Positions 1 through 43,410 of a stretch of DNA of 64,000 bases are shown one piece after another. Where the stretch lies: positions 35,059 to 99,058 of the forward strand of contig CAZWLE010000004.1 in assembly GCA_964634305.1 (NCBI GenBank). Direction: 5' to 3'. Every line of letters starts with the position of its first letter. The first letter of the stretch is position 1. Under the pieces are notes generated by a model that saw nothing but the letters and a program-made list of their open reading frames with translations, was not told where the DNA came from and did no database searches. Position numbers and translations under genes: made by a program. The stretch comes from an uncultured Candidatus Saccharibacteria bacterium. Lineage in GTDB: Bacteria; Patescibacteriota; Minisyncoccia; Phycocordibacterales; Phycocordibacteraceae.

Positions 1-1517
1 TCTTCGCGGGTGCGTTTATGCTCATCTCGCGCGCGGTTATTCTCGCGTTTCTCATGGTGACTTCGCCAATTGGGTTTGCGGGCATGGCAGTACCGCCGTT
101 GAAGAAACTTGCTGATGATTGGTGGAGTAAGCTGTTGCACCAGGCATTCTTCGCACCAATTTTCCTCTTACTTCTCTTGGTATCACTAAAGATTACCGAG
201 GGACTTTCACAAATAAGCTCAGGGGAAGGAGGCATTGGTGGTGCCATTGCCGCAGGAAACTCGATAAACACCGGGCCGCTCATTATGTTCTGTCTTATTA
301 TCGGCTTCTTTCTTGGTGCTCTTACTCTTGCAAACCGTTTTGGTATTTACTTCTCAGATCTTGCAACGACCACTGCAGGACGCCTGTCTTTTGGTGCCAT
401 GGGTATGCTTGGCCGTAACTCAGTAGGACGCGTTGCGTTAGGACTGCGCCAGGGTCTTAATTCTAAGGATGGTGGTAAAACTCCGTTTGGTCGATTCCGT
501 GGCAGCATGTATGACGTGCTCGCCAAAGGTAACTATGATTTCCGTAGCAATAAGCTAGCGCACGATATTGGGCACCAAGTAAAAGTTGATTTTGGTCATG
601 GACAGCATGGCGGATATGAGCACATAGCGCATGAAAGGGATGAGAAGCTTGAGAAATACGGTAAGGGCCGTGAACACAATGCTGAACAAAAGAGCTTACT
701 TGGCGCTGCTGCTAAAGAAACTAACAATGCAAAGGAGGCTGCAGAAGAGGCAAAGAAGAAATATGAAGCACATGCCGAGGGCGAGGATACTGCATCTGCT
801 ACACTTGAAGAACAACTCAAGACAGCAACCGCTGCTGCAGCTACGGCCCAGAAGACTAATCAGGATCGATTTAACGCTCAAGAACAGGTGCTCGCAAAAG
901 CAGACGCTGACCTTAAGGCAGCACAGGAGCAGAGAGCCGCTTCATCTTCTAACCTTGCTGCATATGGTGTAGCTAAGGCTGCAGAAGAGAAAGCAGAGAA
1001 AGACCGCAATGAAGCGGCAGCGGCTCTGGAGGTTATTAAGGAACAAAATGAGGCACAGGCTGAACGCGACAAGATAAATCTTGAAGCACAGCAAGAAGCA
1101 CTTCGTGTAAGCCGTGAGAACTTCACAACACTTGGAAAGACGCTTTCAAAAGCAGTTAAAGATAAAACGGAGGCGTTTGAACTACAAAAGGCTGCAGAAG
1201 TAAAATTGAAGGCGGATTTGAGTCCTATTAAAGCGTTTACTGAACAGCTTGCACGAGAACAGGCAAATCCAATCATCCGTATGCTTCCTGGTAGTGAGGG
1301 CGTGACGCATGCTATCCATAATCTTGATAAGCACGCGAATTCAACAGAGAACGAGCGTTTGATGAAGAAACTTGCTGACTCAATCGACAGAGCCGGAAAA
1401 GCTACTGCCGATGCAACAAGAAGTCTTGAGCGCGAAATTGATGAGAACGCTCGTCGAGCTGCTGGTGACAGTACGGACGATCAGCACGCGACGGGTGGTG
1501 GTGACGGTCATCACTGA
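1..1517 (+). CDS. Integral membrane protein, VirB6/TrbL-like candidate, 5' end truncated by the window edge. Several hydrophobic helices are followed by a ~350-aa Ala/Glu/Lys-rich coiled-coil tail.
   Basis: The reading frame is open from position 3 with no upstream stop. The N-terminal part is hydrophobic (LAFLMVTSPIGFAG, FFAPIFLLLLLVSL, LIMFCLIIGFFLGALTLA). A long heptad-like AEEAKKK/AAQEQ region follows. The gene sits in a cluster with PrgI-like and VirB4 genes. Confidence 0.3.
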   Translation, partial: FAGAFMLISRAVILAFLMVTSPIGFAGMAVPPLKKLADDWWSKLLHQAFFAPIFLLLLLVSLKITEGLSQISSGEGGIGGAIAAGNSINTGPLIMFCLIIGFFLGALTLANRFGIYFSDLATTTAGRLSFGAMGMLGRNSVGRVALGLRQGLNSKDGGKTPFGRFRGSMYDVLAKGNYDFRSNKLAHDIGHQVKVDFGHGQHGGYEHIAHERDEKLEKYGKGREHNAEQKSLLGAAAKETNNAKEAAEEAKKKYEAHAEGEDTASATLEEQLKTATAAAATAQKTNQDRFNAQEQVLAKADADLKAAQEQRAASSSNLAAYGVAKAAEEKAEKDRNEAAAALEVIKEQNEAQAERDKINLEAQQEALRVSRENFTTLGKTLSKAVKDKTEAFELQKAAEVKLKADLSPIKAFTEQLAREQANPIIRMLPGSEGVTHAIHNLDKHANSTENERLMKKLADSIDRAGKATADATRSLEREIDENARRAAGDSTDDQHATGGGDGHH

Positions 1518-9253: not shown

Positions 9254-9996
9254 GTTTGAGGCGCTGGAGTTCCAGACACAACCGGATACACCTTACGGAC
9301 AACAAACTCCTGTACGACCATAAACACGCTTGAGGCGATGAAGTAGAGCGCGAGCACTGCTGAGGTGTACGCGATAGCACCCACAAGAAGCGGGAAGATG
9401 TAACGCGCCTGCAGAGCAATCATGCGGGCAAACTCATCCTGCATAGATGGTGTTGCTTCCGTGCTTTTTGGTGGTACTGGGATGACATACCAGCTCTGCC
9501 AGAGCTGTGCGAGCGCCGCGACAAGCGCGAGAATGATACTAGGAGCGGCGAGCGAGAAGATACCAAGGAAGAGAGGGGAGAGCACCGCAGGCGCCTGTAC
9601 GAATGGGTAGAGGAGCGATGGGTCAGCTGAGGCAAGGGCCGTAGCGTGAAGTGCGACGTAATAGAGACCGAAGAGAATCGGAATCTGAATGAAGAGCATC
9701 AAAATAGAGGCAAAGGGCTTCACGCCATGCGCCTTATAGAGTGCGAGCATCTCGCGTGCCTGTTTCTCCTTATCATCCTTATACCGCTCCTTGAGCGCCT
9801 TTAGCTCAGGCTCAAGCACCTTCATCGCGCGCTGGGTCTTCACCGCCGAGAGGGAGAGGGGAAGGAGCACCAGCTTTACGACGACGGTCGCGGCAATAAC
9901 CGCGATACCAAGGTCACCTCCAGGAATGATATCCACGAGGAATACCAAGAGGTTGTAGATAGGGAGATAAATGAAGTGGTGAAAGAAAGAAGCCAT
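9250..9996 (-). CDS. yidC: Membrane protein insertase YidC, short form
   Basis: The segment KTQRAMKVLEPELKALKERYKDDKEKQAREMLALYKAHGVKPFAS...IQIPILFGLY is typical of YidC. The gene sits in the canonical rpmH-rnpA-yidC arrangement. Confidence 0.75.
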   Translation of the reverse strand: MASFFHHFIYLPIYNLLVFLVDIIPGGDLGIAVIAATVVVKLVLLPLSLSAVKTQRAMKVLEPELKALKERYKDDKEKQAREMLALYKAHGVKPFASILMLFIQIPILFGLYYVALHATALASADPSLLYPFVQAPAVLSPLFLGIFSLAAPSIILALVAALAQLWQSWYVIPVPPKSTEATPSMQDEFARMIALQARYIFPLLVGAIAYTSAVLALYFIASSVFMVVQEFVVRKVYPVVSGTPAPQT

Positions 9997-10001
9997 AAGT
10001 C

Positions 10002-10316
10002 CTAATGATGGGGGCGATTGAGTAGAGATTCAAGCTCGGCCTTGAGAACACCGTAGGGAAGCCCGAGACTTCCCGCACGTGCGTAGGCAATAATGGAGCG
10101 ACCAGGGGTGAGATAGGGGCGTAGGACAGCGAGCATCCGGCGCTTCAAGAGGTGTCGGTCGACCGAGCGACGGGCTACCTTCTTAGACACTACGGCAGCT
10201 GCCCCTCCTTCACGGGCAGGGACAGCAACAATAGAGAAATGGGCTGAGGATGCCCTCATACCGCTCCGGGTGTCCGGAAACCGAGCCCGGGAAAGGCGGC
10301 TCCGGCGGGGCAGCAT
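10002..10316 (-). CDS. rnpA: Ribonuclease P protein component
   Basis: It is a basic small protein (RLSRARF...VVSKKVARRSVDRHLLKRRM) located between rpmH and yidC. The true start may instead be the internal Met at about 10259. Confidence 0.6.
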   Translation of the reverse strand: MLPRRSRLSRARFPDTRSGMRASSAHFSIVAVPAREGGAAAVVSKKVARRSVDRHLLKRRMLAVLRPYLTPGRSIIAYARAGSLGLPYGVLKAELESLLNRPHH

Positions 10317-10323
10317 GCCTAAT

Positions 10324-10476
10324 TTACGCCTTACGGCTCTTGACGGTCAGCGCGGCGCGTCCTTTTCTGCGGCGACGGGTAAGAACGTTCTTCCCGGTAG
10401 GGGTTTTGCTGCGAGAAAGGAAGCCGTGGGCGCGAGCGCGCTTTCGTTTCTTCGGCTGGTACGTGCGTTTTGGCAT
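10324..10476 (-). CDS. rpmH: 50S ribosomal protein L34, missing from the ORF track because it is under 60 aa
   Basis: The reverse-strand translation is [50 protein letters not shown]-stop, a near-canonical L34 sequence. Confidence 0.85.
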
Positions 10477-10585
10477 GAAGTCGAGTGATAAATGCTATCC
10501 ACAGGATACTAACATGTTCTCCACGCCGAGCAAGAAAATAGGCCAGTTTTTAGTTATCCACAGTGGCGCGTATACTACTCCCACG
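10477..10585. promoter_or_regulatory. dnaA upstream region carrying DnaA boxes (oriC/dnaA promoter candidate)
   Basis: A perfect TTATCCACA lies at 10554-10562. CTATCCACA (one mismatch) lies at 10495-10503. A weaker TTCTCCACG lies near 10518. All sit between the divergent rpmH and dnaA. Confidence 0.6.
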
Positions 10586-11929
10586 ATGAACAAACAAGAT
10601 CCTCACGAACTTTGGGAACACATACTTTCGCAGGTAGAACTCTCCATATCACCTGCCAATTTCAACACCTGGTTTCGTGAGAGTCATATTGTAAAGATAG
10701 AAGAGGGGATTGTGTACGTAGGTGTACCGAGCCAATTCTTCCGTGATTGGTACCAGAAGAAGTTCCACGCGCTTCTCCTTAAGATTCTCCGCTCGGTCTC
10801 CTACGAGTTCCGTAATATTGAGTACCTCATCGTTAAAGATGCACGTAAGCCAAAGGTAGAGAAGCGTGAGCGCCAGAATCAGGAGTTGCCGCTCGATGAG
10901 TTCTACATAAACAAGAGCGACAACCTTAATCCTCGCTACACGTTCGATACGTTTGTCGTTGGTTCCTTCAACGAACTCGCGTACACCGCTGCTATGGCTG
11001 CTATTAAGCGCCCTGGCATCACATACAACCCACTCTTTGTGTACGGCGACACCGGACGCGGTAAGACGCACCTCATTCAGGCGGTGGGTAATCAATTCAA
11101 GAAACTCTACCCAACGCGTAAGGTCTACTATCTAACGTCAGAGAAGTTTTCCGTCGACTACACCGACTCCATAGGGCAGGGGACGGCGAACCGTTTCAAG
11201 GAGAAGTACCGTCAGTACGATCTCATCATCATGGATGACATCCAGTTCCTCGCCAAGAAGGAGAAGACGCAGGAGGAACTCTTCCACCTCTTCAACCACC
11301 TGCACGACAACAATAAGCAGATTATCTTCTCCTCAGACCGTCCTCCTCAGGCTATTCCTGATATTGCTGACCGTGTACGTGGACGTCTTCTTAGCGGCAT
11401 GACGGTGGATATTTCTGAGCCTGATACCGAGTCTCGTATCGCTATCGTGAAGAAAAAGGCAGCTCAGCACGACGTCATCCTTGCTGATGATGTGGTGGAG
11501 TACGTCGCCACCTCCGTTTCTGGCTCTATTCGAGAGCTTGAAGGCATTATTAACTCACTTGTGTGTCATGCGCAGGTAAAAGGAGTATCTCCAGACCTTG
11601 CAGAGGTACGTCAGTCACTCCGTTCTTTCTCCCGCCCTACTAAATCAGTCTCGGTTAAGCATGTGGTCTCTAAGGTGGCTGAGTTCTACGGTATCGACGA
11701 GGAGAGTATCTACGAGAAGACACGCAGAAGGGAGGTGGTACGCCCACGTCAGGTCATCATGTTCCTTCTTCGTGAGGACTTCTCCGTCTCATATCCGACG
11801 ATAGGATCAAAGCTTGGTGGTCGTGACCACACCACCGTTATTCACTCGTGCGAAAAGGTGCGTCGTGAGATGACGGATGATCTTGAACTTGCAAAAGAGA
11901 TTCAAGATATCCGCGGACTGTTGGTATAG
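10586..11929 (+). CDS. dnaA: Chromosomal replication initiator DnaA
   Basis: The N-terminal domain (LWEHILSQVELSISPANFNTWF) is followed by the AAA+ Walker A (GDTGRGKTHL) and Walker B (DLIIMDDIQF), and a C-terminal DNA-binding domain (HTTVIHSCEKV). Start was taken at ATG 10586 rather than the over-extended track start at 10250. Confidence 0.9.
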   Translation: MNKQDPHELWEHILSQVELSISPANFNTWFRESHIVKIEEGIVYVGVPSQFFRDWYQKKFHALLLKILRSVSYEFRNIEYLIVKDARKPKVEKRERQNQELPLDEFYINKSDNLNPRYTFDTFVVGSFNELAYTAAMAAIKRPGITYNPLFVYGDTGRGKTHLIQAVGNQFKKLYPTRKVYYLTSEKFSVDYTDSIGQGTANRFKEKYRQYDLIIMDDIQFLAKKEKTQEELFHLFNHLHDNNKQIIFSSDRPPQAIPDIADRVRGRLLSGMTVDISEPDTESRIAIVKKKAAQHDVILADDVVEYVATSVSGSIRELEGIINSLVCHAQVKGVSPDLAEVRQSLRSFSRPTKSVSVKHVVSKVAEFYGIDEESIYEKTRRREVVRPRQVIMFLLREDFSVSYPTIGSKLGGRDHTTVIHSCEKVRREMTDDLELAKEIQDIRGLLV

Positions 11930-12132
11930 GTGTGTAAAACCTATGGAAAACTCCCAGGAAACTATGAGGATAATTACTGAGATGATTGGGGATTCTGTTA
12001 GGTTGGGAAAAGGGGTGTTAGTAAGTTCTGTTATTAACAATAGTTTTCAACAGGGTTGTGTAGGTGGTAGGGAGAAAATAACTAAGTATGTAGGCGGTAT
12101 TACTACGTTTTCCACCTATCAACACAACTAAT
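11930..12132. promoter_or_regulatory. AT-rich dnaA-dnaN intergenic region, candidate DNA-unwinding element or second oriC half
   Basis: This ~200 nt stretch is markedly AT-rich compared with its flanks. It contains degenerate box-like TTTTCCACC and TGTGTAAAA. Confidence 0.35.
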
Positions 12133-12141
12133 ATGGGTGGT

Positions 12142-13242
12142 ATGAATATTTCTCTAGAAAAAAAAGAATTAATACAGGCAGTGGGAATTGTTTCTCGTTT
12201 CTCTGAACGAAAGACCTCAACACTTCCTGCACTTGCAGGTATCTCGATACTGGCTGAGAAAGATACCCTTACGTTCTATGCCACTAATCTTGAAACCGGT
12301 ATCAGTCTTAAGGTGCAAGGCTCAGTCCGCACTCCTGGATCTATTGTGCTTCCGGCGAATATTTTCCGAGAGATCACCAACTCCTTCTCAGGTACAGGGA
12401 CAGTTTCTTTAGAGCTTGATGGTGATGTAGTGAAAATAGCAGCAGGAACCGCAAAGACCACTATGAAAACCCTTCCTCAAGAGGATTTTCCAACCCTTCC
12501 TTCTCTTGAGACGTCTAAAATCTCCTTCACTCTCCCTGGTACGCTTCTTAAGAGCCTTATTTCAACGGTAGCGTCGTGCGCATCTCCTTCGACGGTACGT
12601 CCTGAACTTGCCAGTATCTTTATTTCCGCTGAGGGCGGCACGGTAAAGGCGGTAGCTACTGACTCATTCCGTCTTGCAGAGAAGAAAGTATCCGTGAACG
12701 CATCAGTGAAGCCGTTCTCCATGCTTATTCCTGCTAAAAACGCCCTAGATATCGCACAGACGCTTCCTGACGAGGATATTGAGGTAAATGCCGACGAACA
12801 TCAGTGCTCCTTCTCTTGGAAGGGAGGTATGGCTACGACACGTCTTGTGTCTGCACAGTACCCAGACTATGGGCAGATAATTCCAAAAACATTCGCCGCA
12901 GAAGCGACGATTCTCCGAAAAGATTTTGAGACGGCTCTTCGTCGGGCCTCTGTCTTCTCTGACGCGTTCCAAAAGGTTCGTGTGGGACTTGATGCAGGAA
13001 AGAAGCAAGTCACGCTCTCATCGCGAAATTCTGACGTTGGAGAGTCCTTAGAGAGTATTCCTGCATCAATATCAGGAGAAGTAATAGAGCTGCCGTTTAA
13101 TCATCGTTATCTTGGTGCACCACTCTCTCTTATTGGCGCCGAGAGTATCTCGCTCTCTGCTGCAGGTATCGGTCGTCCATTAGTTATGCGTGGTCAGGGT
13201 GATACGTCCTTCTTGTATCTGGTAATGCCGATGAATCAATAG
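12142..13242 (+). CDS. dnaN: DNA polymerase III beta sliding clamp
   Basis: The ~366 aa length and three-domain beta-clamp pattern fit DnaN. The gene lies directly after dnaA. The track start at 12133 is an alternative. Confidence 0.85.
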   Translation: MNISLEKKELIQAVGIVSRFSERKTSTLPALAGISILAEKDTLTFYATNLETGISLKVQGSVRTPGSIVLPANIFREITNSFSGTGTVSLELDGDVVKIAAGTAKTTMKTLPQEDFPTLPSLETSKISFTLPGTLLKSLISTVASCASPSTVRPELASIFISAEGGTVKAVATDSFRLAEKKVSVNASVKPFSMLIPAKNALDIAQTLPDEDIEVNADEHQCSFSWKGGMATTRLVSAQYPDYGQIIPKTFAAEATILRKDFETALRRASVFSDAFQKVRVGLDAGKKQVTLSSRNSDVGESLESIPASISGEVIELPFNHRYLGAPLSLIGAESISLSAAGIGRPLVMRGQGDTSFLYLVMPMNQ

Positions 13243-13244
13243 TT

Positions 13245-14282
13245 TTGATGATTAACTCAAAAACATTATTTATAGTTGGTGCTGGAGCAAGTCAGGAGGT
13301 GAAATTTCCAGCAGGGGATACTTTTAAAAAAGAAATAACCAGACGGTTAGATATCCAATATGAACATGGTTTCGAGAGAACCTCTGGTGATGAAAGGATA
13401 GACGAAGCCTTTAGAAGATTAGTAAGAGAGAAGAATCCCCAAAACCAAGACATAAACCCGTATCTAAAAGCATCTCGGAAGATAAGAGACGCTCTGCCTC
13501 AAGCGTTATCTATAGATAATGTTTTGGATGCTCATGCGGAAGACGATGAGGTCCAGCTAGCAGGAAAGCTTGGAGTTGCCCAGACAATTCTAGAGGCAGA
13601 GAGAAAAAGTTCCCTGTTCTGTGGATTTGGAGAGAAGATAAACCAGTCGAATCTTTTGGATACTTGGTATGTTCAGCTTTCTAAGCTACTTACAGAGAAT
13701 GTAAGAAAAGGAGATATTGGAGAAATCTTCGATAACGTTTCTTTCATAACTTTTAATTACGACAGATGTATCGAGCAATATCTTCCCCATGCTCTTGCGA
13801 ATTATTATTCAATCTCCTTAGAGGAGGCACGGGCGATAGTCTCCACTTTGGTGATTAAACATCCTTATGGGCAGGTCGGTAGATTAAGCGCAGAAAATCC
13901 AAGAGACATGGTCCTTTTTGGAGAAACTGAGAGGGTTGATTTAATCGCTATTTCCTCTCAGATAAAAACTTTTACACAACAAGAAGCAAACCCAGCTAAC
14001 CTGGAAGATATAAAATCATTAGTAAGAGAAGCTGAAACGATAGTGTTTTTAGGGTTTGGTTTCCATAGGATGAATATGGAGCTACTCGACCCTCAGACGT
14101 CCACAAAAGTTAAGAGAGTATTCGGTACCGCTAGAGGCATTTCAAACATGGATTGTGAAGTGGTCAAAGACGACATCATGTCCATCCTTCACCCAGAGAC
14201 TACAATTCCTAAAATCGTGATTGATAACACCTTGTCCTGTTATGGGCTTTTCGAAACACACTGGAGAAGTCTCTCTCGTTAA
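13245..14282 (+). CDS. SIR2-like (SIR2_2 / ThsA-like) domain protein with a presumed NAD+-binding or NADase fold, standalone, 345 aa
   Basis: The motifs are FIVGAGASQE (GAGxS), ITFNYDRCIEQ (the TTNYD motif), IKHPYGQ (the xHG region) and IVFLGFGFHRMN (the FVGFSF-D motif). Order and spacing match ThsA N-domain-type SIR2. The gene is visibly AT-rich relative to dnaN and the PBP gene. Confidence 0.55.
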   Translation: MMINSKTLFIVGAGASQEVKFPAGDTFKKEITRRLDIQYEHGFERTSGDERIDEAFRRLVREKNPQNQDINPYLKASRKIRDALPQALSIDNVLDAHAEDDEVQLAGKLGVAQTILEAERKSSLFCGFGEKINQSNLLDTWYVQLSKLLTENVRKGDIGEIFDNVSFITFNYDRCIEQYLPHALANYYSISLEEARAIVSTLVIKHPYGQVGRLSAENPRDMVLFGETERVDLIAISSQIKTFTQQEANPANLEDIKSLVREAETIVFLGFGFHRMNMELLDPQTSTKVKRVFGTARGISNMDCEVVKDDIMSILHPETTIPKIVIDNTLSCYGLFETHWRSLSR

Positions 14283-14285
14283 AAA

Positions 14286-16481
14286 TCAGTTCCCAAACCC
14301 TGGTGGCATTATCTCGTAGAGAATCTCCGGTTCCTCGTCCTCATCCCGGTTTCTGCGGCGGTCGTTATTGTCTTCGTTACCTTCCTCGTTTGGATTTGTC
14401 AGGTCGTTGCTGAGGGCGTACTCCCAGTACGGAGTCTGGCGGTCACTACGTGAGGTGCCGCCACCAAGTGGATTGTCCTTGTCTACAAACCAGAGAAGGT
14501 CGTGAATACCGGAGTTGTCGGTAAAGCTACCGCGAAGTGCTGCGGGTGCGTTGTCAGGAATGGCACGGCGCTCACCAAAGTATTCCTGCGGCACCTTCTG
14601 AAGGGCGAAGTCCATGTACTCACGCCATGCAGGAGCAATGATGTAGCCTGCGACCTGTTTCACCATAGGGCTGTTGTCGTTGTTACCAGCCCAGACACCA
14701 ACCGCAAGTCCTGGCGTGTAGCCAATGGTCCATGCGTCGCGGTAGTCGTTAGTGGTACCGGTCTTTGCCGCAACATCGTAGTCAGCAAAGGAGAATGGGT
14801 TGTTACCTGGATTCTCGCGGGCTGCATCGTTTGAGAGGATGTAGGAGATGTCGCGCGCGACACCCGCATCAAGTACCTGCGTTGGGTCTGCCTTGAACTC
14901 TTCGAGTACCTGACCGTCGGAATCAGTAACCTTCAAGATACCGACCGGAGGATTAAGGACGCCGTCGTTAGCGAACGCGCCATATGCACTCGTGATATCG
15001 AGGAGGCGGACTTCACCCGCACCAAGCGCAAGTGAGAGACCGTACTGCTTCGCGTCACCAAGCGTGGTGATGCCCATGCGCGTCGCAAGGTCGATAACAT
15101 TCTCGATACCGGCGATGTACATAACCTTCACGGCAGGGATGTTAATCGACTGTACGAGGGCCGTGGCAAACGTCATAGGGCCGCGGAACTTATCATCGTA
15201 GTTACCTGGTGCGTAGCACGGATACTCGCTCTGGAAGATGTCGGACGGCGCGCAGGCGGTAGAGAACTGAGTAGGGAGGTCGAAGATAATCGTGTCAGGG
15301 GTGAAGCCTTTAGCGAGTGCGGTCGCGTACACGAATGGCTTAAACGACGACCCTGGCTGACGCTCGGCTATCGCAATGTTGTAGCTACCGTCGACACTCT
15401 CATCAAAGTAATCACGTGAGCCGACCATAGAGAGAATCTGTCCGGTCTTTGGGTCAATCGCAACGAGTGCTGCGTTTGAGGCGTTGTAGCGTCCTTGGTT
15501 TGCAATCGCATACTTATTCACGACTGACTCTGCTTCACGCTGAAGGTCGACATCAAGCGTTGTCTGCACTTCAAGACCGCGCGTGACGGCGGTAGGGCCG
15601 TACTTATTCTCAAGATACTGCTCGATAAAGAAAACGAAGTGCGGCGCGATGATTGAGTTAGTGTTCTGGGGGCTCCAGGTTACTTTCTCCGCCTTTGCCG
15701 TCGCATACTCCTCGTCGGTGATGTACCCGAGCTTGTTCATGCGCTCAAGCACGTAGTCTTTGCGGATATCGAGGTCGTCACGGTTGTTACCGTACGGCGA
15801 GAAGTAGGTAGGTGCCTGAGGGAGCGCAGCAAGGTATGCCGCCTCTGCGATAGAGACATCCTTCGCAGACTTTCCAAAGTACGCACGAGTAGCAGCCTCA
15901 ATACCGTAAAGCGTGCCGCCGTACGGGGTGTTATTGAAGTAGAGTTCGAGGATTTCTTCCTTTGAGTAGCGCTGCTCAAGTTTCAAGGCGAGCACCCACT
16001 CATGCACCTTACGAATGATGCTCTTGTCGGTAGTAAGCAGGGTGTTTTTGACGACCTGCTGCGTAATGGTTGAACCACCTTGTGCGAGCGTACCAGTCGT
16101 TATGTCGACATATATTGCGCGGAGGATACCAGGGATGCTGATGCCGTTGTGGTAGTAGAAGGCAGAGTCCTCAATCGCAATCGTTGCTTTCTGAACGTTT
16201 GGCGAGATGAGGTCAAGCGGAACCATGTTCCGAGTGACGTCAGGATTGAGGTCGTAGAGCACGGTGTTGCCGGTGCGGTCGAGAATACGAGTCGACTCAC
16301 TAATCTTTCGGGTCGAAAGGGTGTCGAGGTCAGGAAGTGGAGCGAGTGCGACGTAAAGAAGAGTAGTCGCAAAGCCAATGAATACAATGCCGCCCATAAT
16401 GCAGAGCGCCCGTACCACAGGGGAGGGATGATGAAGGAAGGAGTCGATAGTCGCCTTCAGGTTGAATTTCTTCTTGGTCAT
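14286..16481 (-). CDS. Class A penicillin-binding protein (bifunctional transglycosylase/transpeptidase) with an acidic C-terminal tail
   Basis: The GT51 region is IAIEDSAFYYHNGISIPGILRA and the transpeptidase motifs are SSFKPF and KTGTT. The ORF is 731 aa. Confidence 0.8.
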   Translation of the reverse strand: MTKKKFNLKATIDSFLHHPSPVVRALCIMGGIVFIGFATTLLYVALAPLPDLDTLSTRKISESTRILDRTGNTVLYDLNPDVTRNMVPLDLISPNVQKATIAIEDSAFYYHNGISIPGILRAIYVDITTGTLAQGGSTITQQVVKNTLLTTDKSIIRKVHEWVLALKLEQRYSKEEILELYFNNTPYGGTLYGIEAATRAYFGKSAKDVSIAEAAYLAALPQAPTYFSPYGNNRDDLDIRKDYVLERMNKLGYITDEEYATAKAEKVTWSPQNTNSIIAPHFVFFIEQYLENKYGPTAVTRGLEVQTTLDVDLQREAESVVNKYAIANQGRYNASNAALVAIDPKTGQILSMVGSRDYFDESVDGSYNIAIAERQPGSSFKPFVYATALAKGFTPDTIIFDLPTQFSTACAPSDIFQSEYPCYAPGNYDDKFRGPMTFATALVQSINIPAVKVMYIAGIENVIDLATRMGITTLGDAKQYGLSLALGAGEVRLLDITSAYGAFANDGVLNPPVGILKVTDSDGQVLEEFKADPTQVLDAGVARDISYILSNDAARENPGNNPFSFADYDVAAKTGTTNDYRDAWTIGYTPGLAVGVWAGNNDNSPMVKQVAGYIIAPAWREYMDFALQKVPQEYFGERRAIPDNAPAALRGSFTDNSGIHDLLWFVDKDNPLGGGTSRSDRQTPYWEYALSNDLTNPNEEGNEDNNDRRRNRDEDEEPEILYEIMPPGFGN

Positions 16482-16745
16482 GCGGGAATCCTAGCATGAG
16501 ACGAACGAAGCGGCCCTGCATGACGCAGGGCCGCTTTGTGTGACGAGCTGCTTATACAGCGTCTTCGTTCATTTCGTCGGTGGTCTCTTCGTCGGTGACT
16601 TCCTCCTCACCGTCAACTAGATCATTTCCTAGGTCGTCGTTCATGTAACGCAAATTATTTCTCATGCCCGAAGGCGCGAACCGCTCTATATGTACCAAAT
16701 CCGTCCGGGCTAGGGAAGGGGATAGTCCAGTGCGTGGGGATAGTG

Positions 16746-33468: not shown

Positions 33469-34009
33469 ACTTACTAATCTTTTGCCTCACGCACGACAGC
33501 TCACGGAGAAGCGTGAGTATCTTGTACGTCTTGCGACGCTTTCCTGCATAGTGGCGACGTTTGTCGTAGTGGTGCACGGGGCACTATTGGTACCGTCGTA
33601 TCTGTATCTCTCTGAACAGGTTGGTCTCGAGCGTGCACGTATTGCTGAACTCGACGCGGCGCTCGCGCTAAGTGGGGAAGGGGAACTCTCAACGCGTGTC
33701 AGCACCTTGAAAGCGGATGCGGCGCGGTTGAGTGCGGTGAGCACCTCACCTGCAGCAACGACGGTGCTGCGTGCAGTCCTCGCACTTCCCTCAAATGGCA
33801 TTACGCTTTCTGCATTCACGTTCCATGCGCCACCTGAAGGACGTATCTCGGTAACTGGAACGGCTGCGACGCGTGAGTCACTTCGTCAGTACGCTGCAGC
33901 ACTCGAAACGCTTACATTCGCAGAGAGTACCGACTTACCACTCTCGGCTTATGCACGGGAGAGTGATATTCCATTTACGATTACGCTCACCGGTCCTCTT
34001 ACGCCATGA
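33458..34009 (+). CDS. pilN: PilN-like bitopic membrane protein
   Basis: It has a short cytoplasmic N-terminus, one TM (LSCIVATFVVVVHGALLVPSYLYL), and a periplasmic coiled-coil plus domain. It overlaps the pilM end. Confidence 0.5.
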   Translation: MSTELTNLLPHARQLTEKREYLVRLATLSCIVATFVVVVHGALLVPSYLYLSEQVGLERARIAELDAALALSGEGELSTRVSTLKADAARLSAVSTSPAATTVLRAVLALPSNGITLSAFTFHAPPEGRISVTGTAATRESLRQYAAALETLTFAESTDLPLSAYARESDIPFTITLTGPLTP

Positions 34010-34521
34010 ACACGTCTTTCATACATCTAGGCATTGCTGCACTAGTACTCGTGCTTGCTGCGGGCGGGTACGCACTTGGCTTTCACATGGTGTCTGAAGC
34101 AAAGGCGGAAGCTACGACGCTTGCAGGAGAAATAGCGGCTAAAGAAGCAGCGCAGGCACGCGGCGCAGGCGCACGCGCACGCTTGCTTGAGGTGGCGTCA
34201 GACGAAACATTCCTCGCGTCGCACTTTGTCGCCACTGCTGACATCGTGTCGTTTCTTGAGGACCTTGAAGGTGCAGGAGATGCGTTTGGGGCAGTAGTAT
34301 CTGTCGCGTCAGTATCAGGAGACGAAGCGAATCAGGGAGGACGCATCACGCTCTCGCTTTCTATTCGTGGTTCATTCGATGCGGTCATGCGTACACTTGG
34401 GGTGCTTGAACACGGACGCTATGTTCTCTCGTCTCGCGACTTGGTGTGGAGCGGTGGCGCAGAAGGAGAGTGGGCGGTGACCGGCACGTTCGTTGCAGAA
34501 ACTAAAACCACTACACCATGA
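34006..34521 (+). CDS. pilO: PilO-like bitopic membrane protein
   Basis: It has one N-terminal TM (IAALVLVLAAGGYALGF) followed by a coiled-coil region. It overlaps the pilN end by 4 nt. Confidence 0.45.
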   Translation: MNTSFIHLGIAALVLVLAAGGYALGFHMVSEAKAEATTLAGEIAAKEAAQARGAGARARLLEVASDETFLASHFVATADIVSFLEDLEGAGDAFGAVVSVASVSGDEANQGGRITLSLSIRGSFDAVMRTLGVLEHGRYVLSSRDLVWSGGAEGEWAVTGTFVAETKTTTP

Positions 34522-34823
34522 CCTTGCCTCCAGCCCTACAAAAGATTTTGAAGAAACTGCGGCTTGGCGGCCACAGCGGACACGCTGACCCGGCACGTGA
34601 CTGGGCACTCCTTCTCTCTCTTGCACTCGTAGTCATCATTGCAAGCGTTGCGTGGAATGTGTGGTTCTTCTTTGAAGTATTGAACGCGCAGCCAGTCGTT
34701 GAAGCGCCTGCGACCGAGGAAGAAACAGATACGGTGGCGCCCCTACGAACACTCTTCGAAGAGCGAGCAGCAGAGGAAGCCCGCTATCGAAACGAGTATC
34801 GTTTCGTTGACCCGGGCAACTAA
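34518..34823 (+). CDS. Small membrane protein, last gene of the pilMNO cluster
   Basis: The ORF is 101 aa with one TM (LLLSLALVVIIASVAWNVWFFF). It overlaps pilO by 4 nt. Confidence 0.35.
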   Translation: MTLPPALQKILKKLRLGGHSGHADPARDWALLLSLALVVIIASVAWNVWFFFEVLNAQPVVEAPATEEETDTVAPLRTLFEERAAEEARYRNEYRFVDPGN

Positions 34824-34841: not shown

Positions 34842-34913
34842 GCCTCCATAGCTCAATGGATAGAGCTGCGGACTTCTAAGCCGTCGATGTTGGTTCGATT
34901 CCAGCTGGAGGCA
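34842..34913 (+). tRNA. tRNA-Arg (anticodon TCT)
   Basis: The fold has acceptor GCCTCCA/TGGAGGC, D-arm GCTCAATGGATAGAGC, anticodon loop CTTCTAA (as in argU-type tRNAs) and T-loop TTCGATT. One mismatch sits at the anticodon stem closing pair. Confidence 0.65.
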
Positions 34914-34928
34914 CAAGCAGAGATGAAT

Positions 34929-35013
34929 GGGCATGTGGCGGAATTGGTATACGCGTACGTCTCAGAAGCGTATGGAGCAATCCTTGGAGGTTCGAGTCCT
35001 CTCATGCCCACCA
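34929..35013 (+). tRNA. tRNA-Leu (anticodon CAG) with encoded CCA
   Basis: The fold has acceptor GGGCATG/CATGCCC, anticodon loop CTCAGAA, long variable arm and T-loop TTCGAGT. Confidence 0.8.
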
Positions 35014-35053: not shown

Positions 35054-36895
35054 ATGACGCGCTTCTCTCGTATTAGCCGATGCTACACTCTCTGTATGAG
35101 TGAGCGGTACGAAGCGCCGAAGAGTAGAAGTGAATACAAAGAGCCCGCTGGTTTCTATGACTATGCGACGCAAACTGCGCGCATCCGCACTGAGTTGCTG
35201 TGGAAACAAATTCAACTAGCAGCGGCAAAAGCACCTCTTGCATACGACAAGATGATAGATAGAGGTGCACTTACCAAAAACCAACTTGAGAGTGCCGAAC
35301 ATAATCTTCTTCGAAATGCGAAGAAGCCTGATGGGTATATCACTCCTCGGGATGTTGCGAAGAGAGAACGGATTGCTGGATATGTTGATGCCAGGGATGC
35401 GCGTGTGGGAACTGATAAGACCCGAGAACTTTCAGCGTATCTTCGTTCAACTGCTGAGCTCTATAGAGCAAACGTAGACCATCTTGCGAAAGATTTCGAC
35501 CATACGCTCGTCATCCCTACCGTGCTTACGGAAGTAGAACAACAAGTTGATAGAGCGTTTCTGCCACAAGAGCTCGAAGCATCTAAAACTCTCAGGGCAT
35601 TTGTTAGCGAGTTTAAGGATAAGATGGCCAAGTCACGTGCTCAGTTTGCATCGGTCATTGCTGCATATCCCACCGATATGCGCTCTTCGGAATATGACGA
35701 TAAGAAGAAAGAGACGCAAATAATGCGAGACAGCAAACGGTCAAAGGCCATGCTGACTTCAATCTCATCTTTGTCTAAAGAAATGCAGGGAGTAGATACC
35801 ATATACGAAGACATTATTACTCGCCTCAGTGCTGCAGAGACAAAGGCGCGCAAGAAACCGCAACCTTCTGAAGAAACCGTGCCACTCTCTGCACAGACAC
35901 GTGCAGCATCGGGCGCGCTTGATGCTCTTCCGGATGCGGAAGTACGCTCACTTACTCGTTTTAAAAATCTGTTGCAACAGGAGCGGATTAATAATATCCG
36001 TCAGTACGCCATTACGTACAAAGAACTGATTCGAGCATTCGAAACACACATCAAGACTGGCAAGAAACTGCGCGCGGCAGAAATACATCTTGGCAGAATG
36101 TTAGCGGTCCGTACGGGTCTGCATGCCCAGAGAGAATCAAAGCGGGACAAGATAGGTGAACTTATGCAAGTCGAAGGTGCGTGGTTGAGTCAGAAAGCAA
36201 ATCAGCGCAATGGGCAGGATGATTTTGTTGGTGCATATCTAGGAAACCTGAATGGCCATACTCCTCCCGTTGAAAAAGCGAACAATGGGTGGAGCTTAGG
36301 TTTAGAAGAAATAGGAAAGCGACCAGAAAATGACATCGTTGACATAGTGATGGGCATGCGAAATCGCGCGTTGCTTCCAGAAGACCTAGTTGAGGAAGGG
36401 GAAGAACCAGTTGAATCTGATGAAGATATAGAAACGGCTGAACCGACGCTGGAGGTAATAGATACGCCAACAGAGCCAAAACGTCCACAACCACCCGTCA
36501 AACAGAATGAGCCTATACCGGTAGAACTGGCGCCTATAGTCGCTGAATCAGCCAAGGAAGAATCGAAACCTAAGGTTCTAGTTCCGAAACCAGCAGAGAA
36601 AAAGAAAGGAAACAAAGAAAAAACAGCTAATCTAGAGAAGAAACGAAAGATACTGCGAGGAGTAATAGGGAAACTAAAGGAAGAAAAACTTCCCAAGCCA
36701 AGATCTAGAAATTCATGGGCTGAGGTTGTTAACGCTTTCAAAAAGGAAAAATTGCCTGAAGAAGCGATGCAAGCGGTACAAGAATATATCAATAGTCAGG
36801 AAGCTCTTCGACAAGGACTTAACATCAAATTTGGTCCAAACGGTCGTAAGTTTCTCATTGATGTATTAGAACAGGTCGAGCAAACGCTCGTATAG
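35054..36895 (+). CDS. Large hypothetical, highly charged (Lys/Glu-rich) alpha-helical protein on a lower-GC, tRNA-flanked segment
   Basis: The 613-aa ORF has no recognisable catalytic motif and a KKxK-rich C-terminus. The segment is visibly lower in GC than its neighbours. It is bounded by tRNA-Leu(CAG) on the left and a perfect hairpin plus tRNA-Val on the right. Confidence 0.5.
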   Translation: MTRFSRISRCYTLCMSERYEAPKSRSEYKEPAGFYDYATQTARIRTELLWKQIQLAAAKAPLAYDKMIDRGALTKNQLESAEHNLLRNAKKPDGYITPRDVAKRERIAGYVDARDARVGTDKTRELSAYLRSTAELYRANVDHLAKDFDHTLVIPTVLTEVEQQVDRAFLPQELEASKTLRAFVSEFKDKMAKSRAQFASVIAAYPTDMRSSEYDDKKKETQIMRDSKRSKAMLTSISSLSKEMQGVDTIYEDIITRLSAAETKARKKPQPSEETVPLSAQTRAASGALDALPDAEVRSLTRFKNLLQQERINNIRQYAITYKELIRAFETHIKTGKKLRAAEIHLGRMLAVRTGLHAQRESKRDKIGELMQVEGAWLSQKANQRNGQDDFVGAYLGNLNGHTPPVEKANNGWSLGLEEIGKRPENDIVDIVMGMRNRALLPEDLVEEGEEPVESDEDIETAEPTLEVIDTPTEPKRPQPPVKQNEPIPVELAPIVAESAKEESKPKVLVPKPAEKKKGNKEKTANLEKKRKILRGVIGKLKEEKLPKPRSRNSWAEVVNAFKKEKLPEEAMQAVQEYINSQEALRQGLNIKFGPNGRKFLIDVLEQVEQTLV

Positions 36896-36912: not shown

Positions 36913-36950
36913 AACAGAACCCAGACACGAGTGTCTGGGTTCTGTTGTTT
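36913..36950. terminator. Strong rho-independent terminator, a 16-bp perfect stem
   Basis: The structure is AACAGAACCCAGACAC-GAG-GTGTCTGGGTTCTGTT followed by GTTT. Confidence 0.65.
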
Positions 36951-37025
36951 GGTGCGCGCTGAGGGACTCGAACCCCCGACCATCCCGGTGTAAACGGGGT
37001 GCTCTACCAACTGAGCTAAGCGCGC
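36950..37025 (-). tRNA. tRNA-Val (anticodon TAC) with encoded CCA
   Basis: The reverse complement is GCGCGCTTAGCTCAGTTGGTAGAGCACCCCGTTTACACCGGGATGGTCGGGGGTTCGAGTCCCTCAGCGCGCACCA. Confidence 0.8.
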
Positions 37026-41899: not shown

Positions 41900-42337
41900 A
41901 TGACAGAAAGCAGGTATGATAGGCCGATGGTTGCAGTTACCGAACTCCTCCGAGGAGCGTCACTTCGTGCCACACCCCAACGGGTGCGGGTACTTGAGCT
42001 ACTTGGACGGCAGAAGAAACCAATTTCTGTGGAAGCGCTAGTTACATCCGGAAAGGGAGCGTTTGATACCACAACGGCGTACCGCGCACTCGATGTGCTA
42101 ACGCGCGGCGGCCTTGTACGCCGTATTAATCTTGATCGGGAGCGTGCATTGTACGAAATTGCTGGTGAACATCATCACCACGCAGTCTGTCGTTTTTGCG
42201 GAACGATACGAGACATATCAGCGTGTGTGCCGATTGGACTATCTGCCCGTGTCTGCGCCTCGTCAGGATTCGCGTCTATAGATTCCCACTCCCTTGAATT
42301 CTATGGAATGTGCACGTCATGTGCTGCGAAAGCATGA
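41900..42337 (+). CDS. zur: Fur family metalloregulator, probably Zur by context
   Basis: A winged-helix N-terminus is followed by HHHHAVCRFCG and a second Cys pair (CTSC), matching Fur/Zur metal sites. The gene is divergent from a ZIP zinc transporter. Confidence 0.65.
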   Translation: MTESRYDRPMVAVTELLRGASLRATPQRVRVLELLGRQKKPISVEALVTSGKGAFDTTTAYRALDVLTRGGLVRRINLDRERALYEIAGEHHHHAVCRFCGTIRDISACVPIGLSARVCASSGFASIDSHSLEFYGMCTSCAAKA

Positions 42338-43410
42338 AAGCGTTATTCATAGCAATCGCGTTTTTTGCATTTCCAGCCTTCGGCGCGGCGCAGACAACAG
42401 ACATATACAAAGCAGTCGTACTCGATGTGCTGCTTGAAGGTGAGTATGCAGTGCCGGCAACAAGTCTTGATGCAAAGTATCAAGCACTGTCCGTCAAAAT
42501 ACTTGATGGGGTACGTGAAGGACAGATTGTTTCAGTTACAAACGATTCACCCTACCAACTCCAAGAAGGAGAACAGTTTTACCTACACCACCTTTTTGCT
42601 GAAGATGGGTCGGATGTATGGGCAGTGGGAGAGCCAGACCGAAGCGTTCCTCTCCTTGCGCTCACCGTCATATTCGTCCTCGCTACAGTTATAGCGGGCG
42701 GTATGGCTGGGGTGCGTGCCATCATATCGTTAGCGGGAAGTTTCGTTATTATCCTCGTAGGACTACTTCCAGTACTTCTTTCAGGAGCCCCTCCCGTTCT
42801 TACCTGTATAGGATTTGCAGTCCTCATACTCGTGTTTTCAATGTTTGTCACCCATGGGTGTAATAAACCCACATTCGTAGCTCTTCTTGGCAGCTTTGCA
42901 GCGCTTCTGCTTGCCGCACTAATTGCTGAAGCTGCAGTGGCTGCGGCGCACCTCTCTGGTTTTGTATCTGATGAGGCAGTGTTCCTTAATTTTGAGACGG
43001 GCGGAACCTTAGATCTTGAAGCTCTTCTCCTTGGAAGTATTCTTATTGGTATCGTTGGAGTACTAAACGACATTAGTGTGTCGCAGGTACATACGGTTGG
43101 GGAGATAACGCATGCCAATCCTGCACTCTCACGACGTGAGGTTTTTGCACGCGCGATGAAAGTGGGAAGGGAACATCTTGGAGCAGTTGTAAATACACTG
43201 CCGCTTGCATATGCGGGCGCGGCTCTCCCGCTGTTACTGCTTTTTGCTGATTCTGGTTCGTCGTTCGCCTTTATCGCAAACAGAGAGACGTTTGCGTCTG
43301 AGATTATCCGCATCCTGGCAGGAGGTATAGGTCTAGCGCTCTCCGGAGCTGTAGCAACCATTCTTGCCGCTTATTTTCTTGTCACCAAAAGGCCCCCAGA
43401 GGCGTCGTGA
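42310..43410 (+). CDS. YibE/F-like polytopic membrane protein
   Basis: A signal peptide and ~100-aa extracytoplasmic domain are followed by 6-7 TM helices. The ORF is 366 aa. Confidence 0.4.
   Translation: MHVMCCESMKALFIAIAFFAFPAFGAAQTTDIYKAVVLDVLLEGEYAVPATSLDAKYQALSVKILDGVREGQIVSVTNDSPYQLQEGEQFYLHHLFAEDGSDVWAVGEPDRSVPLLALTVIFVLATVIAGGMAGVRAIISLAGSFVIILVGLLPVLLSGAPPVLTCIGFAVLILVFSMFVTHGCNKPTFVALLGSFAALLLAALIAEAAVAAAHLSGFVSDEAVFLNFETGGTLDLEALLLGSILIGIVGVLNDISVSQVHTVGEITHANPALSRREVFARAMKVGREHLGAVVNTLPLAYAGAALPLLLLFADSGSSFAFIANRETFASEIIRILAGGIGLALSGAVATILAAYFLVTKRPPEAS

Follow-up and report, generated by a model that had tools for sequence, protein, structure and literature searches.

Immune SIR2 proteins, or "sirims", have been defined by the lack of a zinc module, by a central sheet of at least seven strands in place of exactly six, and by a defence-enriched neighbourhood (10.1101/2024.09.18.613514). 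AbiH, a single-gene abortive-infection protein, has a predicted Sir2-like fold without the zinc module and has been proposed to deplete NAD (10.1101/2024.09.18.613514; PMC13064643), and for ThsA, Avs5 and FAM118 filamentation is a prerequisite for activity (PMC12700824). The CPR/Patescibacteria have few recognisable defences, yet are under heavy phage pressure (PMC12259885). Here we describe a gene for a Sir2-like protein of 344 amino acids in a 64-kb stretch of DNA (hereafter the window) from a Paceibacterota genome, and compare it with the systems of this type that have been described.

AbiH of Lactococcus (PF14253) is about 346 aa long, near the size of the Sir2-like protein, and resembles it in being a single gene with no partner that is accessory or mobile, with the caveat that the NAD-depletion mechanism of AbiH is itself a proposal. 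We regard the Sir2-like family as distinct from AbiH because PF14253 went unmatched by the protein at E ≤ 1 and was matched by only one of 33 relatives (E 1e-3), as judged by HMM-to-sequence comparison. DSR1 and DSR2 are likewise single-gene SIR2 NADase defences whose SIR2 domains match the protein by Foldseek at E values of 1e-4 to 1e-3; the DSR2 chains matched, however, are about 915–995 residues long and possess a large C-terminal region that senses the phage tail tube protein, and no such region is present here. KomC of the Kongming system (8zsf, 9v0g) has 264 aa and acts with KomA and KomB, neither of which is found at this locus, and KomC has no counterpart of the helical insertion (about 80–110 residues) and C-terminal extension of the Sir2-like protein. 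ThsA has a C-terminal SLOG (or Macro) domain and a ThsB/TIR partner, whereas Pfam detects no SLOG or Macro domain in the Sir2-like protein, in which the Sir2 fold plus its insertions covers the full length. The SIR2 subunits of SIR2-HerA need an adjacent HerA ATPase, with which they form a dodecamer-hexamer complex; no HerA gene is present in the window or recurs next to 83 family loci, and sequence identity to the SIR2-HerA/Nezha structures (PsSIR2 8w9l, E. coli 8sub/8j4u) is only 10–13%. Both the APAZ fusion and the adjacent short pAgo of SPARSA (short pAgo, SIR2-APAZ) are absent. The vertebrate stand-alone immune sirtuins FAM118B/FAM118A (SIRanc; 9r0p) are eukaryotic and need partnership between paralogues, and the sequence identity, at about 14%, comes with no evidence of a specific relationship. 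Finally, classical sirtuins (PF02146; CobB/SIRT) differ in matching PF02146 and in having a Zn-binding small domain, which the Sir2-like protein lacks. A sequence-only reading of the window had described the gene as an orphan, and that description holds: of the 52 ORFs in the window that reach 150 aa, none is a candidate TIR (or ThsB), SLOG, HerA or pAgo partner.

The coding sequence, of the stand-alone SIR2_2 or "sirim" type, runs from 13248 to 14282 on the + strand (344 codons and a stop). Initiation at an in-frame TTG, at 13245, would instead give 345 aa, and the ATG at 13248 is the likely start because the family alignment begins there (M-x-x-x-K-T-x-F-x-x-GAGxS). Directly upstream on the same strand lies dnaN, encoding the beta clamp (12142–13242, +; Pfam DNA_pol3_beta domains 1–3), whose homologues are 366 aa long and named Candidatus Paceibacterota, and whose stop codon (13240–13242) is separated from the Sir2-like ATG by a 5-nt spacer. 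On the other side is a convergent gene for a class A penicillin-binding protein, PBP1A (14286–16481, − strand; Pfam Transgly plus Transpeptidase), with its stop codon at 14286–14288, 3 nt from that of the Sir2-like gene. Between the two lies a slot of 1043 nt (13243–14285; 0.40 G+C), and it had been noticed from the sequence that an intact ORF fills this gap, as the coordinates and the Pfam identities of both neighbours now confirm.

An AlphaFold2 (AF2) model of the protein (pLDDT 92.7, pTM 0.91) adopts a Sir2 fold and finds solved Sir2 structures by Foldseek, with defence SIR2s first (E ~1e-4) and CobB and sirtuins behind (E ~5e-3), in line with the fold first suggested by motifs. DSSP assigns eight strands (residues 6–10, 37–39, 43–46, 164–168, 202–204, 264–268, 290–294 and 322–326), a count made over the whole model, with the membership of an extra hairpin in the central sheet being a separate matter. 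When a family profile was compared with the PDB, the KomC NADase was the top match (E 0.002, three motifs in register), while phmmer with the single sequence found nothing there beyond noise (HU-alpha, E ~1). The claim that the domain is of SIR2_2 type stands in part: the protein is a Sir2-fold, non-deacetylase "sirim" type with its NAD-pocket motifs intact, but its match to Pfam SIR2_2 (PF13289; 21.5 bits, E 2.7e-4, residues 165–277) falls below the gathering score of 24.5. SIR2_2 is nonetheless the sole recurrent Pfam match of the family, being found in 17 of 33 members at E ≤ 0.01, and a precomputed PF13289 assignment exists for only two of 120 homologues. Integrase_Zn (E 0.037) and TMP-TENI (E 0.13) were rejected as Pfam noise, NCBIfam returned nothing meaningful for the protein, and the best PADLOC models reached only E ~0.005 (Aga_SIR2, E 0.0056 over 33 residues). 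No signal peptide or transmembrane segment was detected, the maximum 19-residue hydropathy being 0.78. As modelled, the product is a cytoplasmic enzyme with one domain, which has the Sir2 (DHS-like NAD-binding) fold and is of the zinc-less SIR2_2/"sirim" type known from anti-phage NADases.

The sequence-only reading had also named four motifs in a given order, VGAGAS (residues 10–15), TFNYDRCIEQ (168–177), HPYG (205–208) and FLGFGFHRMN (267–276), and all four occur in that order and are near-invariant in 120 homologues. G11-A12-G13-A14-S15 (13278–13292, +) forms the Gly-rich NAD-phosphate loop after strand beta1, with G11, A12, G13 and S15 invariant (120/120); it is in register with GAGVS of KomC and falls, in the model, between a strand at residues 6–10 and a helix at 12–18. 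The segment F169-N170-Y171-D172-R173-C174-I175-E176 (13752–13775, +), equivalent to the sirtuin "TQNID" and the SIR2_2 "TTNYD", aligns with TTNYDRWIE of KomC and lies where the Pfam SIR2_2 match begins. H205-P206-Y207-G208 (13860–13871, +) follows the strand at 202–204 and supplies the putative catalytic histidine, H205, at a distance of 35 residues from N170, as compared with 39 in KomC (N107 to H146, the entry being named KomC(H146N)). The last of the four, F267-L268-G269-F270-G271-F272-H273-R274-M275-N276 (14046–14075, +), makes up a strand (264–268 in the model) and a loop that correspond to the "GTS" region of sirtuins; it aligns with FIGYSLSDIN of KomC and includes G269, F270 and N276, invariant in all 120. 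Thus GAGxS, N-x-D and the histidine each come after a predicted strand and in the canonical Sir2 order, and the predicted NAD pocket does contain a conserved Asn (N170, like D172, in 120/120) and His (114/120). The H205 position is occupied by R in five homologues and by Y in one, and these six of 120 count against a defence role.

Other conserved positions belong to the family alone. S88-I89-D90-N91 (13509–13520, +) is a family-specific motif within the helical insertion (residues ~49–160), conserved at S in 119, I in 118, D in 120 and N in 111 of the 120 homologues, and we infer only that it is placed near the putative NAD pocket. The family-specific invariant residues comprise SIDN together with GK, E118, W140, R173, TF-E and T-x-x-G-x-S-x-x-D.

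The family itself is large (2884 matches; 10,099 representative clusters at 50% identity), its best 150 representatives are full length, at about 320–380 aa with extremes of 267 and 381, and the members examined are always stand-alone and about 345 aa long. The closest homologue is 59% identical, and the nearest named relatives, at 45–47%, are from Alphaproteobacteria. When three ORFs on either side were clustered for 83 loci, no neighbour cluster, ThsB/TIR included, was found in more than five, and the 450-nt flanks contained no conserved small ORF or non-coding element. In 80 genomes the genes next door serve, in the great majority, housekeeping or metabolic functions; a Pfam and PADLOC scan of 148 immediate neighbours matched a handful to defence models, among them Drt8, SoFic, a type IV REase and a type I S subunit, which falls short of demonstrating enrichment in defence islands. 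Plasmid copies occur only on conjugative or mobilisable megaplasmids of Rhizobium/Agrobacterium, where Fic, restriction endonuclease, helicase, HipA, IS66 and DGQHR genes are the neighbours; two of the plasmid contexts have a defence-like or accessory appearance. A BFVD viral fold search returned nothing at E ≤ 1e-3 and a tblastn search of 50,697 phage records was likewise empty, so neither a phage-borne homologue nor a counter-defence mimic is in evidence; nor did the literature yield experimental data on any family member. The family behaves as an accessory gene: single, AT-rich and patchy in its distribution.

The inference that we favour is that the protein serves in defence or as an NADase, in the manner of AbiH, itself Sir2-like and encoded by a single gene. 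We put at about one in two the probability that the locus encodes a stand-alone, acquired Sir2-type protein that would cleave NAD+ upon infection, as do AbiH, DSR, ThsA, KomC and SIR2-HerA. Such a protein would bind NAD+ and, once triggered by infection, cleave it as an NADase, possibly with ADP-ribosyl transfer, leading to abortive infection or growth arrest. Because a separate sensor domain or partner is absent, the trigger would have to be sensed by the protein itself, perhaps through the helical insertion or the C-terminal beta-alpha units. A change in oligomeric state would be the most plausible means of activation, since a filament or oligomer gates the activity of ThsA, Avs5, KomC and FAM118B. 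Transcription would probably come by read-through from dnaA-dnaN, with translation coupled to that of dnaN across the 5-nt spacer, and constitutive synthesis of this kind would mean that the protein must be kept auto-inhibited. As a counterpoint, a toxic NADase made constitutively along with replication genes would need that auto-inhibition to be tight. It is possible, if rather doubtful, that the family is a new and essentially unannotated single-gene anti-phage system spreading as one-gene AT-rich islets across many bacterial phyla, with its invariant residues serving as a built-in sensor or oligomerisation switch and, at this locus, with effector dosage following replication-gene expression.

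Should the defence reading be true, this would be a minimal one-protein NAD-depletion module, with sensing and killing accommodated within about 345 residues, and a good model for the off/on switching of Sir2 effectors. As the family lies below Pfam and PADLOC detection, it would also represent a pool of candidate immune genes missed by present pipelines. There is another side: a SIR2_2 score below threshold, weak PADLOC matches, the failure to match AbiH PF14253, mostly housekeeping neighbours and slot cargo that is not recognisably defensive all count against a defence role.

Should it be wrong, the protein would be an accessory NAD-dependent enzyme and an ordinary find. In fold the protein stands as close to deacylases as to NADases, so that its structure does not reveal the chemistry, and the reaction could be that of an NADase, an ADP-ribosyltransferase or another NAD-dependent enzyme. 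A regulatory ADP-ribosyltransferase, a deacylase or a small-molecule or nucleic-acid enzyme, encoded by an accessory gene with no part in defence, is an alternative explanation that we consider rather unlikely. Canonical deacylases need a zinc module and Cys tetrad (PMC12700824), but the Zn-binding tetrad is absent from the Sir2-like protein, whose four cysteines (125, 174, 303 and 331) form no CxxC pair and of which only C174 and C331 are conserved. In addition, classical SIR2 (PF02146) was matched by none of 33 members while SIR2_2 was matched, defence NADases are preferred by Foldseek as well as by the profile search of the PDB, and patchy AT-rich single-gene islets and plasmid accessory regions are atypical for a housekeeping gene.

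Seven related Paceibacterota genomes, with dnaN 64–70% identical to that of the window, keep the frame dnaA-dnaN-[slot]-PBP1A-ruvC, and the slot differs in all seven, being empty in one (L090) and otherwise occupied by NUDIX, SDR or unknown genes. The Sir2-like gene is at this site in none of them. Since the frame is kept and no relative has the gene, we conclude that it was acquired into a variable hotspot, and the foreign insertion proposed from the sequence is thereby upheld. It also shows a route of acquisition in CPR/Patescibacteria, by which single genes are dropped into a hypervariable slot after dnaN. Direct repeats do not flank the slot, no tRNA is near it, and the window contains no integrase. 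Nor is the slot recognisable as a defence island, as the cargo in relatives consists of NUDIX, SDR and small unknown genes with one weak match to a PADLOC candidate model.

Base composition tells a more complicated story. A hand count of about 35% G+C for the first 100 nt proved accurate (0.35 exactly), and the gene as a whole, with a G+C of 0.403 where the 50 other window ORFs average 0.53 (sd 0.032; z = −4.9; GC3 0.365, z = −2.7), is lower in GC than any other 1038-nt stretch of the window, among the lowest 7 of 6297 sliding positions. Slot G+C is also below that of the flanks in three of four relatives examined. Low G+C had been read as a sign of recent acquisition, and here the sequence-only reading fails, for the trait is family-wide: in 75 of 76 loci the gene has a lower G+C than its flanks, with a mean difference of −0.115, the trough reaches no more than about 250 nt beyond the gene in either direction, and a GC3 deficit (mean −0.165) is present in 71 of 77 loci. 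Given that members of the family are richer in AT than the host genome nearly everywhere, composition alone is unable to prove recent transfer.

A selfish or toxic element, such as an addiction toxin without a recognisable antitoxin, or else a decaying, silent or neutral passenger, would also show foreign composition, rapid turnover of the slot among relatives and a closest homologue no nearer than 59% identity, and would fit the failure to find a promoter, Shine-Dalgarno sequence or TATACT box belonging to the gene. We consider this improbable, given that the ORF is intact with every family-invariant residue retained, that purifying selection is strong across thousands of family members, and that no antitoxin-like small ORF is conserved alongside. 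It is very unlikely that the gene is native and vertically inherited, its low GC being an origin-proximal or family-intrinsic composition. The AT-richness of the family in nearly every genome and the low GC3 of the neighbouring dnaN (0.408; GC 0.473) are consistent with such an origin, but none of the seven syntenic relatives has the gene, the slot being empty in one and filled with unrelated genes in the others, and the nearest named protein relatives are alphaproteobacterial. The modest GC of dnaN does explain why the upstream edge of the GC trough is blunter than the downstream edge.

CPR organisms are thought to be episymbionts (PMC12259885), and it had been suggested that the protein might be used against a host cell. 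That a sensor-less NADase is deployed by an episymbiotic CPR cell against its host bacterium is extremely improbable, for although the source genome is that of a CPR bacterium and Type IV pilus or T2SS-like genes lie elsewhere in the window, the protein has no signal peptide or transmembrane segment and its gene is not linked to secretion genes, the family, always solo, shows no toxin-immunity pair, and an episymbiont-specific weapon is not expected of a family that lives mostly in free-living Proteobacteria, its 80 best genome loci being mostly from Proteobacteria, with Nitrospira, Planctomycetes and others, and none from named Patescibacteria.

Lastly, the tight packing of the gene had been taken to leave no room for a promoter or terminator of its own. 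The spacers of 3–5 nt bear this out, but it is nothing special, as the slot cargo of relatives is packed equally tightly. A promoter scan gave four sites where 5.5 were expected, none attributable to the Sir2-like gene, and dnaN is probably the source of its transcription, with which it would be co-transcribed. Terminator-like hairpins are more frequent than chance predicts (15 as against 5.7), none of them within the spacers, and those within coding sequence are weak, as exemplified by one at 13196–13210 on the + strand, at the 3′ end of dnaN, and another at 14005–13991 on the − strand.

The Sir2-like gene (window 13245 with a TTG start, or 13248 with an ATG, to 14282, plus strand; 345 or 344 aa) had been described in the sequence-only reading as lying directly after dnaN and up against a convergent PBP gene, and ORF and Pfam scans bear this out: dnaN (12133/12142-13242), in which Pfam recognises each of the three beta-clamp domains, is separated from it by 5 nt, and the gene for the class A PBP, PBP1A (14286-16481, opposite strand; Pfam Transgly and Transpeptidase), by 3 nt. 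Since the family alignment starts at the ATG, 13248 is the probable start codon.

It is very likely that the encoded protein is of the Sir2 type in fold and enzyme class. The Pfam SIR2_2 model, to which it had been assigned from motifs, did match (E 2.7e-4), at a score of 21.5 bits that stays under the gathering score of 24.5 bits; the best PADLOC SIR2 model gave an E of about 0.005, and neither NCBIfam nor a single-sequence search of the PDB returned anything. The family itself is large, with 2884 homologues at E<=1e-3, nearly all full-length (about 340-360 aa) and almost all lacking a Pfam assignment, and an exhaustive profile search over representatives clustered at 50% identity gave 10,099 clusters, 3083 of them at E<=1e-30, with the top 150 all full length and single-domain. 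Among 33 relatives, SIR2_2 was the sole recurrent Pfam family (17/33 at E<=0.01), the classical SIR2 family matched none, and AbiH matched one marginally (E 1e-3). When the family profile was compared with PDB sequences, the best match was KomC, a SIR2 NADase, in register at GAGxS, TNYDR and the F/I-G-Y/F-S strand-loop. Fold-match values ran from PsSIR2, the SIR2 of SIR2-HerA (14.4), through ThsA (13.1), archaeal Sir2 (12.9), Nezha SIR2 (12.8), KomC (12.4 / 11.9), FAM118B (11.2), SIRT1, 2, 4, 6 and 7 (9.8-10.9) and Avs5 (10.0-10.2) to SirTM (8.6-8.9) and the first non-Sir2 fold (8.5), and Foldseek, in agreement, gave defence SIR2s better E values (about 1e-4) than CobB and the sirtuins (about 5e-3). 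As several Sir2 clades lie at the same distance, the earlier description of the protein as ThsA-like is too specific.

All four motifs previously recognised (VGAGAS, TFNYDRCIEQ, HPYG and FLGFGFHRMN) are present in that order, and in the structure model a predicted beta strand precedes each NAD-pocket motif, sirtuin-fashion. A conserved His and Asn in the pocket, the check proposed earlier, were looked for: N170 and D172 are found in 120/120 homologues, as are each of G11, A12, G13 and S15 and also G269, F270 and N276, while H205 is found in 114/120, the remainder being five Arg and one Tyr. The distance from N to H is 35 residues, similar to the 39 in KomC (N107 to H146). The six His205 variants (P0032, P0055, P0069 and others, in alignment A1 and the 120-sequence alignment) retain N170, D172 and GAGxS, and two of the Arg variants carry a His one position before (IHRPYG); they may represent a register shift of the putative catalytic residue or a catalytically divergent sub-clade. 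The window protein has no CxxC pair or Cys tetrad, and therefore no zinc module, nor does it have a signal peptide or TM segment. Published criteria separate immune SIR2 (SIR2_2) proteins, or sirims, from deacetylase sirtuins by three features, namely accessory strands, conservation of the NAD pocket and the lack of a zinc module (10.1101/2024.09.18.613514; PMC12700824), and judged by its residues the protein falls on the immune side.

Names of dnaN homologues place the window genome in Candidatus Paceibacterota (Patescibacteria/CPR), the closest dnaN being 70% identical, and seven relatives keep the frame yidC-(rnpA-rpmH)-dnaA-dnaN-[slot]-PBP1A-ruvC-yebC-ruvB. The content of the slot is different: a NUDIX gene in two (L084 and L092), a 96-aa unknown ORF in L085, an SDR gene plus a 74-aa ORF in L086, three unknown ORFs in each of L087 and L091, and nothing in L090, where 5 nt separate dnaN from PBP1A; all seven unknown ORFs in L085, L087 and L091 are small. 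The dnaN-PBP1A junction in Paceibacterota is a hypervariable cargo slot inside a conserved frame. Synteny, proposed earlier as a check for insertion, supports it, for none of the seven relatives carries the Sir2-like gene there and the protein's 80 best genome loci include no Patescibacteria, so that horizontal transfer into a variable hotspot is highly probable. The closest named hosts of homologues are Alphaproteobacteria (45-47% identity); identity rises to 58-59% in the best metagenomic relatives. No integration scar, tRNA near the slot or integrase was found, and no integrase, tRNA or repeat accounts for slot turnover. The relatives' cargo is spaced by 0-40 nt, as tightly as the window gene, so the packing, once read as a lack of room for a promoter or terminator, is a property of the slot and not of the gene.

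Base composition agrees with the earlier count of about 35% G+C over the first 100 nt (recount, 35%). Over its length the gene has a G+C of 0.403 against a mean of 0.53 (sd 0.032) for 50 other window ORFs (z = -4.9), the lowest of any 1038-nt stretch in the 64-kb window, and its GC3 is 0.365 (z = -2.7), as the suggested windowed GC and codon-usage comparison brought out. Since dnaN is somewhat AT-rich too (GC 0.473, GC3 0.408), the step is sharp toward PBP and more gradual toward dnaN, and low GC3 by itself does not reliably mark foreign DNA here. Two further ORFs, 18-1517 (+), which has no Pfam match, and 42310-43410 (+), a YibE/F-like membrane protein, likewise have a GC3 of only 0.40-0.41, where the window averages 0.54. 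A 613-aa ORF at 35054-36895 (+), without a Pfam match (G+C 0.462, GC3 0.402) and flanked by tRNA-Arg/tRNA-Leu (34842-35013) and tRNA-Val (36950-37025, minus strand), may also have been acquired. Slot cargo was AT-richer than its flanks in 3/4 relative loci tested. Across the family, the gene falls below its flanks in G+C at 75/76 loci (mean -0.115), with the greatest deficit at third codon positions (-0.165; 71/77 loci), so the single-gene AT-rich island is typical of the entire family; averaged over 66 loci, the trough covers the gene (-0.121) and about 250 nt per side, no wider. This pattern suggests that the gene is often transferred solo, that its composition persistently fails to ameliorate, or both; it gives no date for the acquisition in the window genome.

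The Sir2-like gene has no promoter-like site of its own, Shine-Dalgarno sequence or TATACT box, and its expression is therefore likely to depend on read-through from dnaN with translational coupling. Several other window genes (e.g., 6183 and 32386) have a TATACT box 7-9 nt before the ATG and no Shine-Dalgarno, which suggests leaderless or very short-leader mRNAs; such a box also lies near 10565-10580, ahead of dnaA. Terminator-like hairpins in window 9900-16700 numbered 15, against 5.7 +/- 2.6 expected from shuffled sequence, several being intragenic and on both strands, some of them in or near the Sir2-like gene (e.g., + 13196-13210, + 13913-13935, - 14005-13991, - 13506-13489).

That the gene is an orphan holds both locally and elsewhere: no TIR, SLOG, HerA, pAgo or other recognisable partner was found among the 52 window ORFs of 150 aa or more, whose PADLOC matches are generic cross-matches in line with Pfam's identification of PolA, TatD and AAA ATPase genes, and at 83 loci in other genomes no neighbour family recurs in more than 5. 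The 450-nt flanks of these loci hold no small ORF or non-coding element whose conservation extends past close relatives. The 148 immediate neighbours match 110 different Pfam families, each in at most two of them; a few are defence or mobile genes (Drt8, SoFic, a type IV REase, a type I S subunit, two integrases). No family member was found in phage records or viral structure predictions.

The comparisons demonstrate that the protein has a Sir2 fold, keeps its NAD pocket intact and lacks both zinc module and partner, and that its gene is an accessory, mobile one in a hotspot behind dnaN. By analogy with the NAD+ cleavers DSR2, ThsA, KomC, the SIR2 of SIR2-HerA and, as proposed, AbiH, the protein would bind and cleave NAD+ upon a trigger, leading to abortive infection or growth arrest. 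It would sense the trigger itself, probably through a change of oligomeric state, as suggested by ThsA, Avs5 and FAM118B, which must form filaments or oligomers to be active (PMC12700824). We give this complete defence-NADase account a probability of roughly 0.5; it stays within what is known of how Sir2 immune effectors work. The main competitor, an NAD-dependent enzyme that acts on a specific substrate outside immunity, is rather unlikely, and draws on the mostly housekeeping or metabolic character of the immediate neighbours and on many residues invariant in this family only (S88-I-D-N91, G106-K107, E118, S121, W140, R173, C174, E176, T241-F242, T294, S299, D302, C331), most of them belonging to the helical insertion (about 49-160) or to the C-terminal beta-alpha units. 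It is improbable that the gene is a selfish, toxic or silent passenger, and very improbable that it is native to the window lineage, against which the slot comparison speaks. Least credible is a weapon against a host cell, proposed at first sight, given neither secretion signal nor secretion linkage and a family distributed in free-living bacteria; the initial observation stands, and its interpretation is supported in part, for the Sir2 type, orphan state and acquisition.

The nearest functional analogue to the defence NADase envisaged here is AbiH, a single-gene Sir2-like Abi protein of similar length whose HMM the window protein does not match. The nearest structures are the SIR2 of SIR2-HerA, ThsA and KomC, whose partners (HerA; SLOG and ThsB; KomA/B, respectively) are absent, and DSR proteins are three times larger. 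For these reasons the protein is best placed in a large and distinct clade of stand-alone proteins inside the SIR2_2/sirim radiation, one for which a literature search found no characterising paper. Bench work is warranted by the size of this unannotated family, its steady behaviour as a one-gene islet and the existence of the dnaN/PBP1A hotspot in CPR genomes. All plasmid-borne members found sit on megaplasmids of Rhizobium and Agrobacterium, among them A. fabrum C58 pAt, in accessory regions with Fic, restriction endonuclease, helicase, HipA, IS66 and a DGQHR protein, and some copies are annotated 'SIR2 family protein'. Agrobacterium fabrum C58 offers a tractable system for probing the family's function; its pAt copy, ATU_RS24105 (record 33565-34740), is a distant member (29% identity) that carries a hypothetical annotation and shares its accessory region with Fic, restriction endonuclease and helicase genes.
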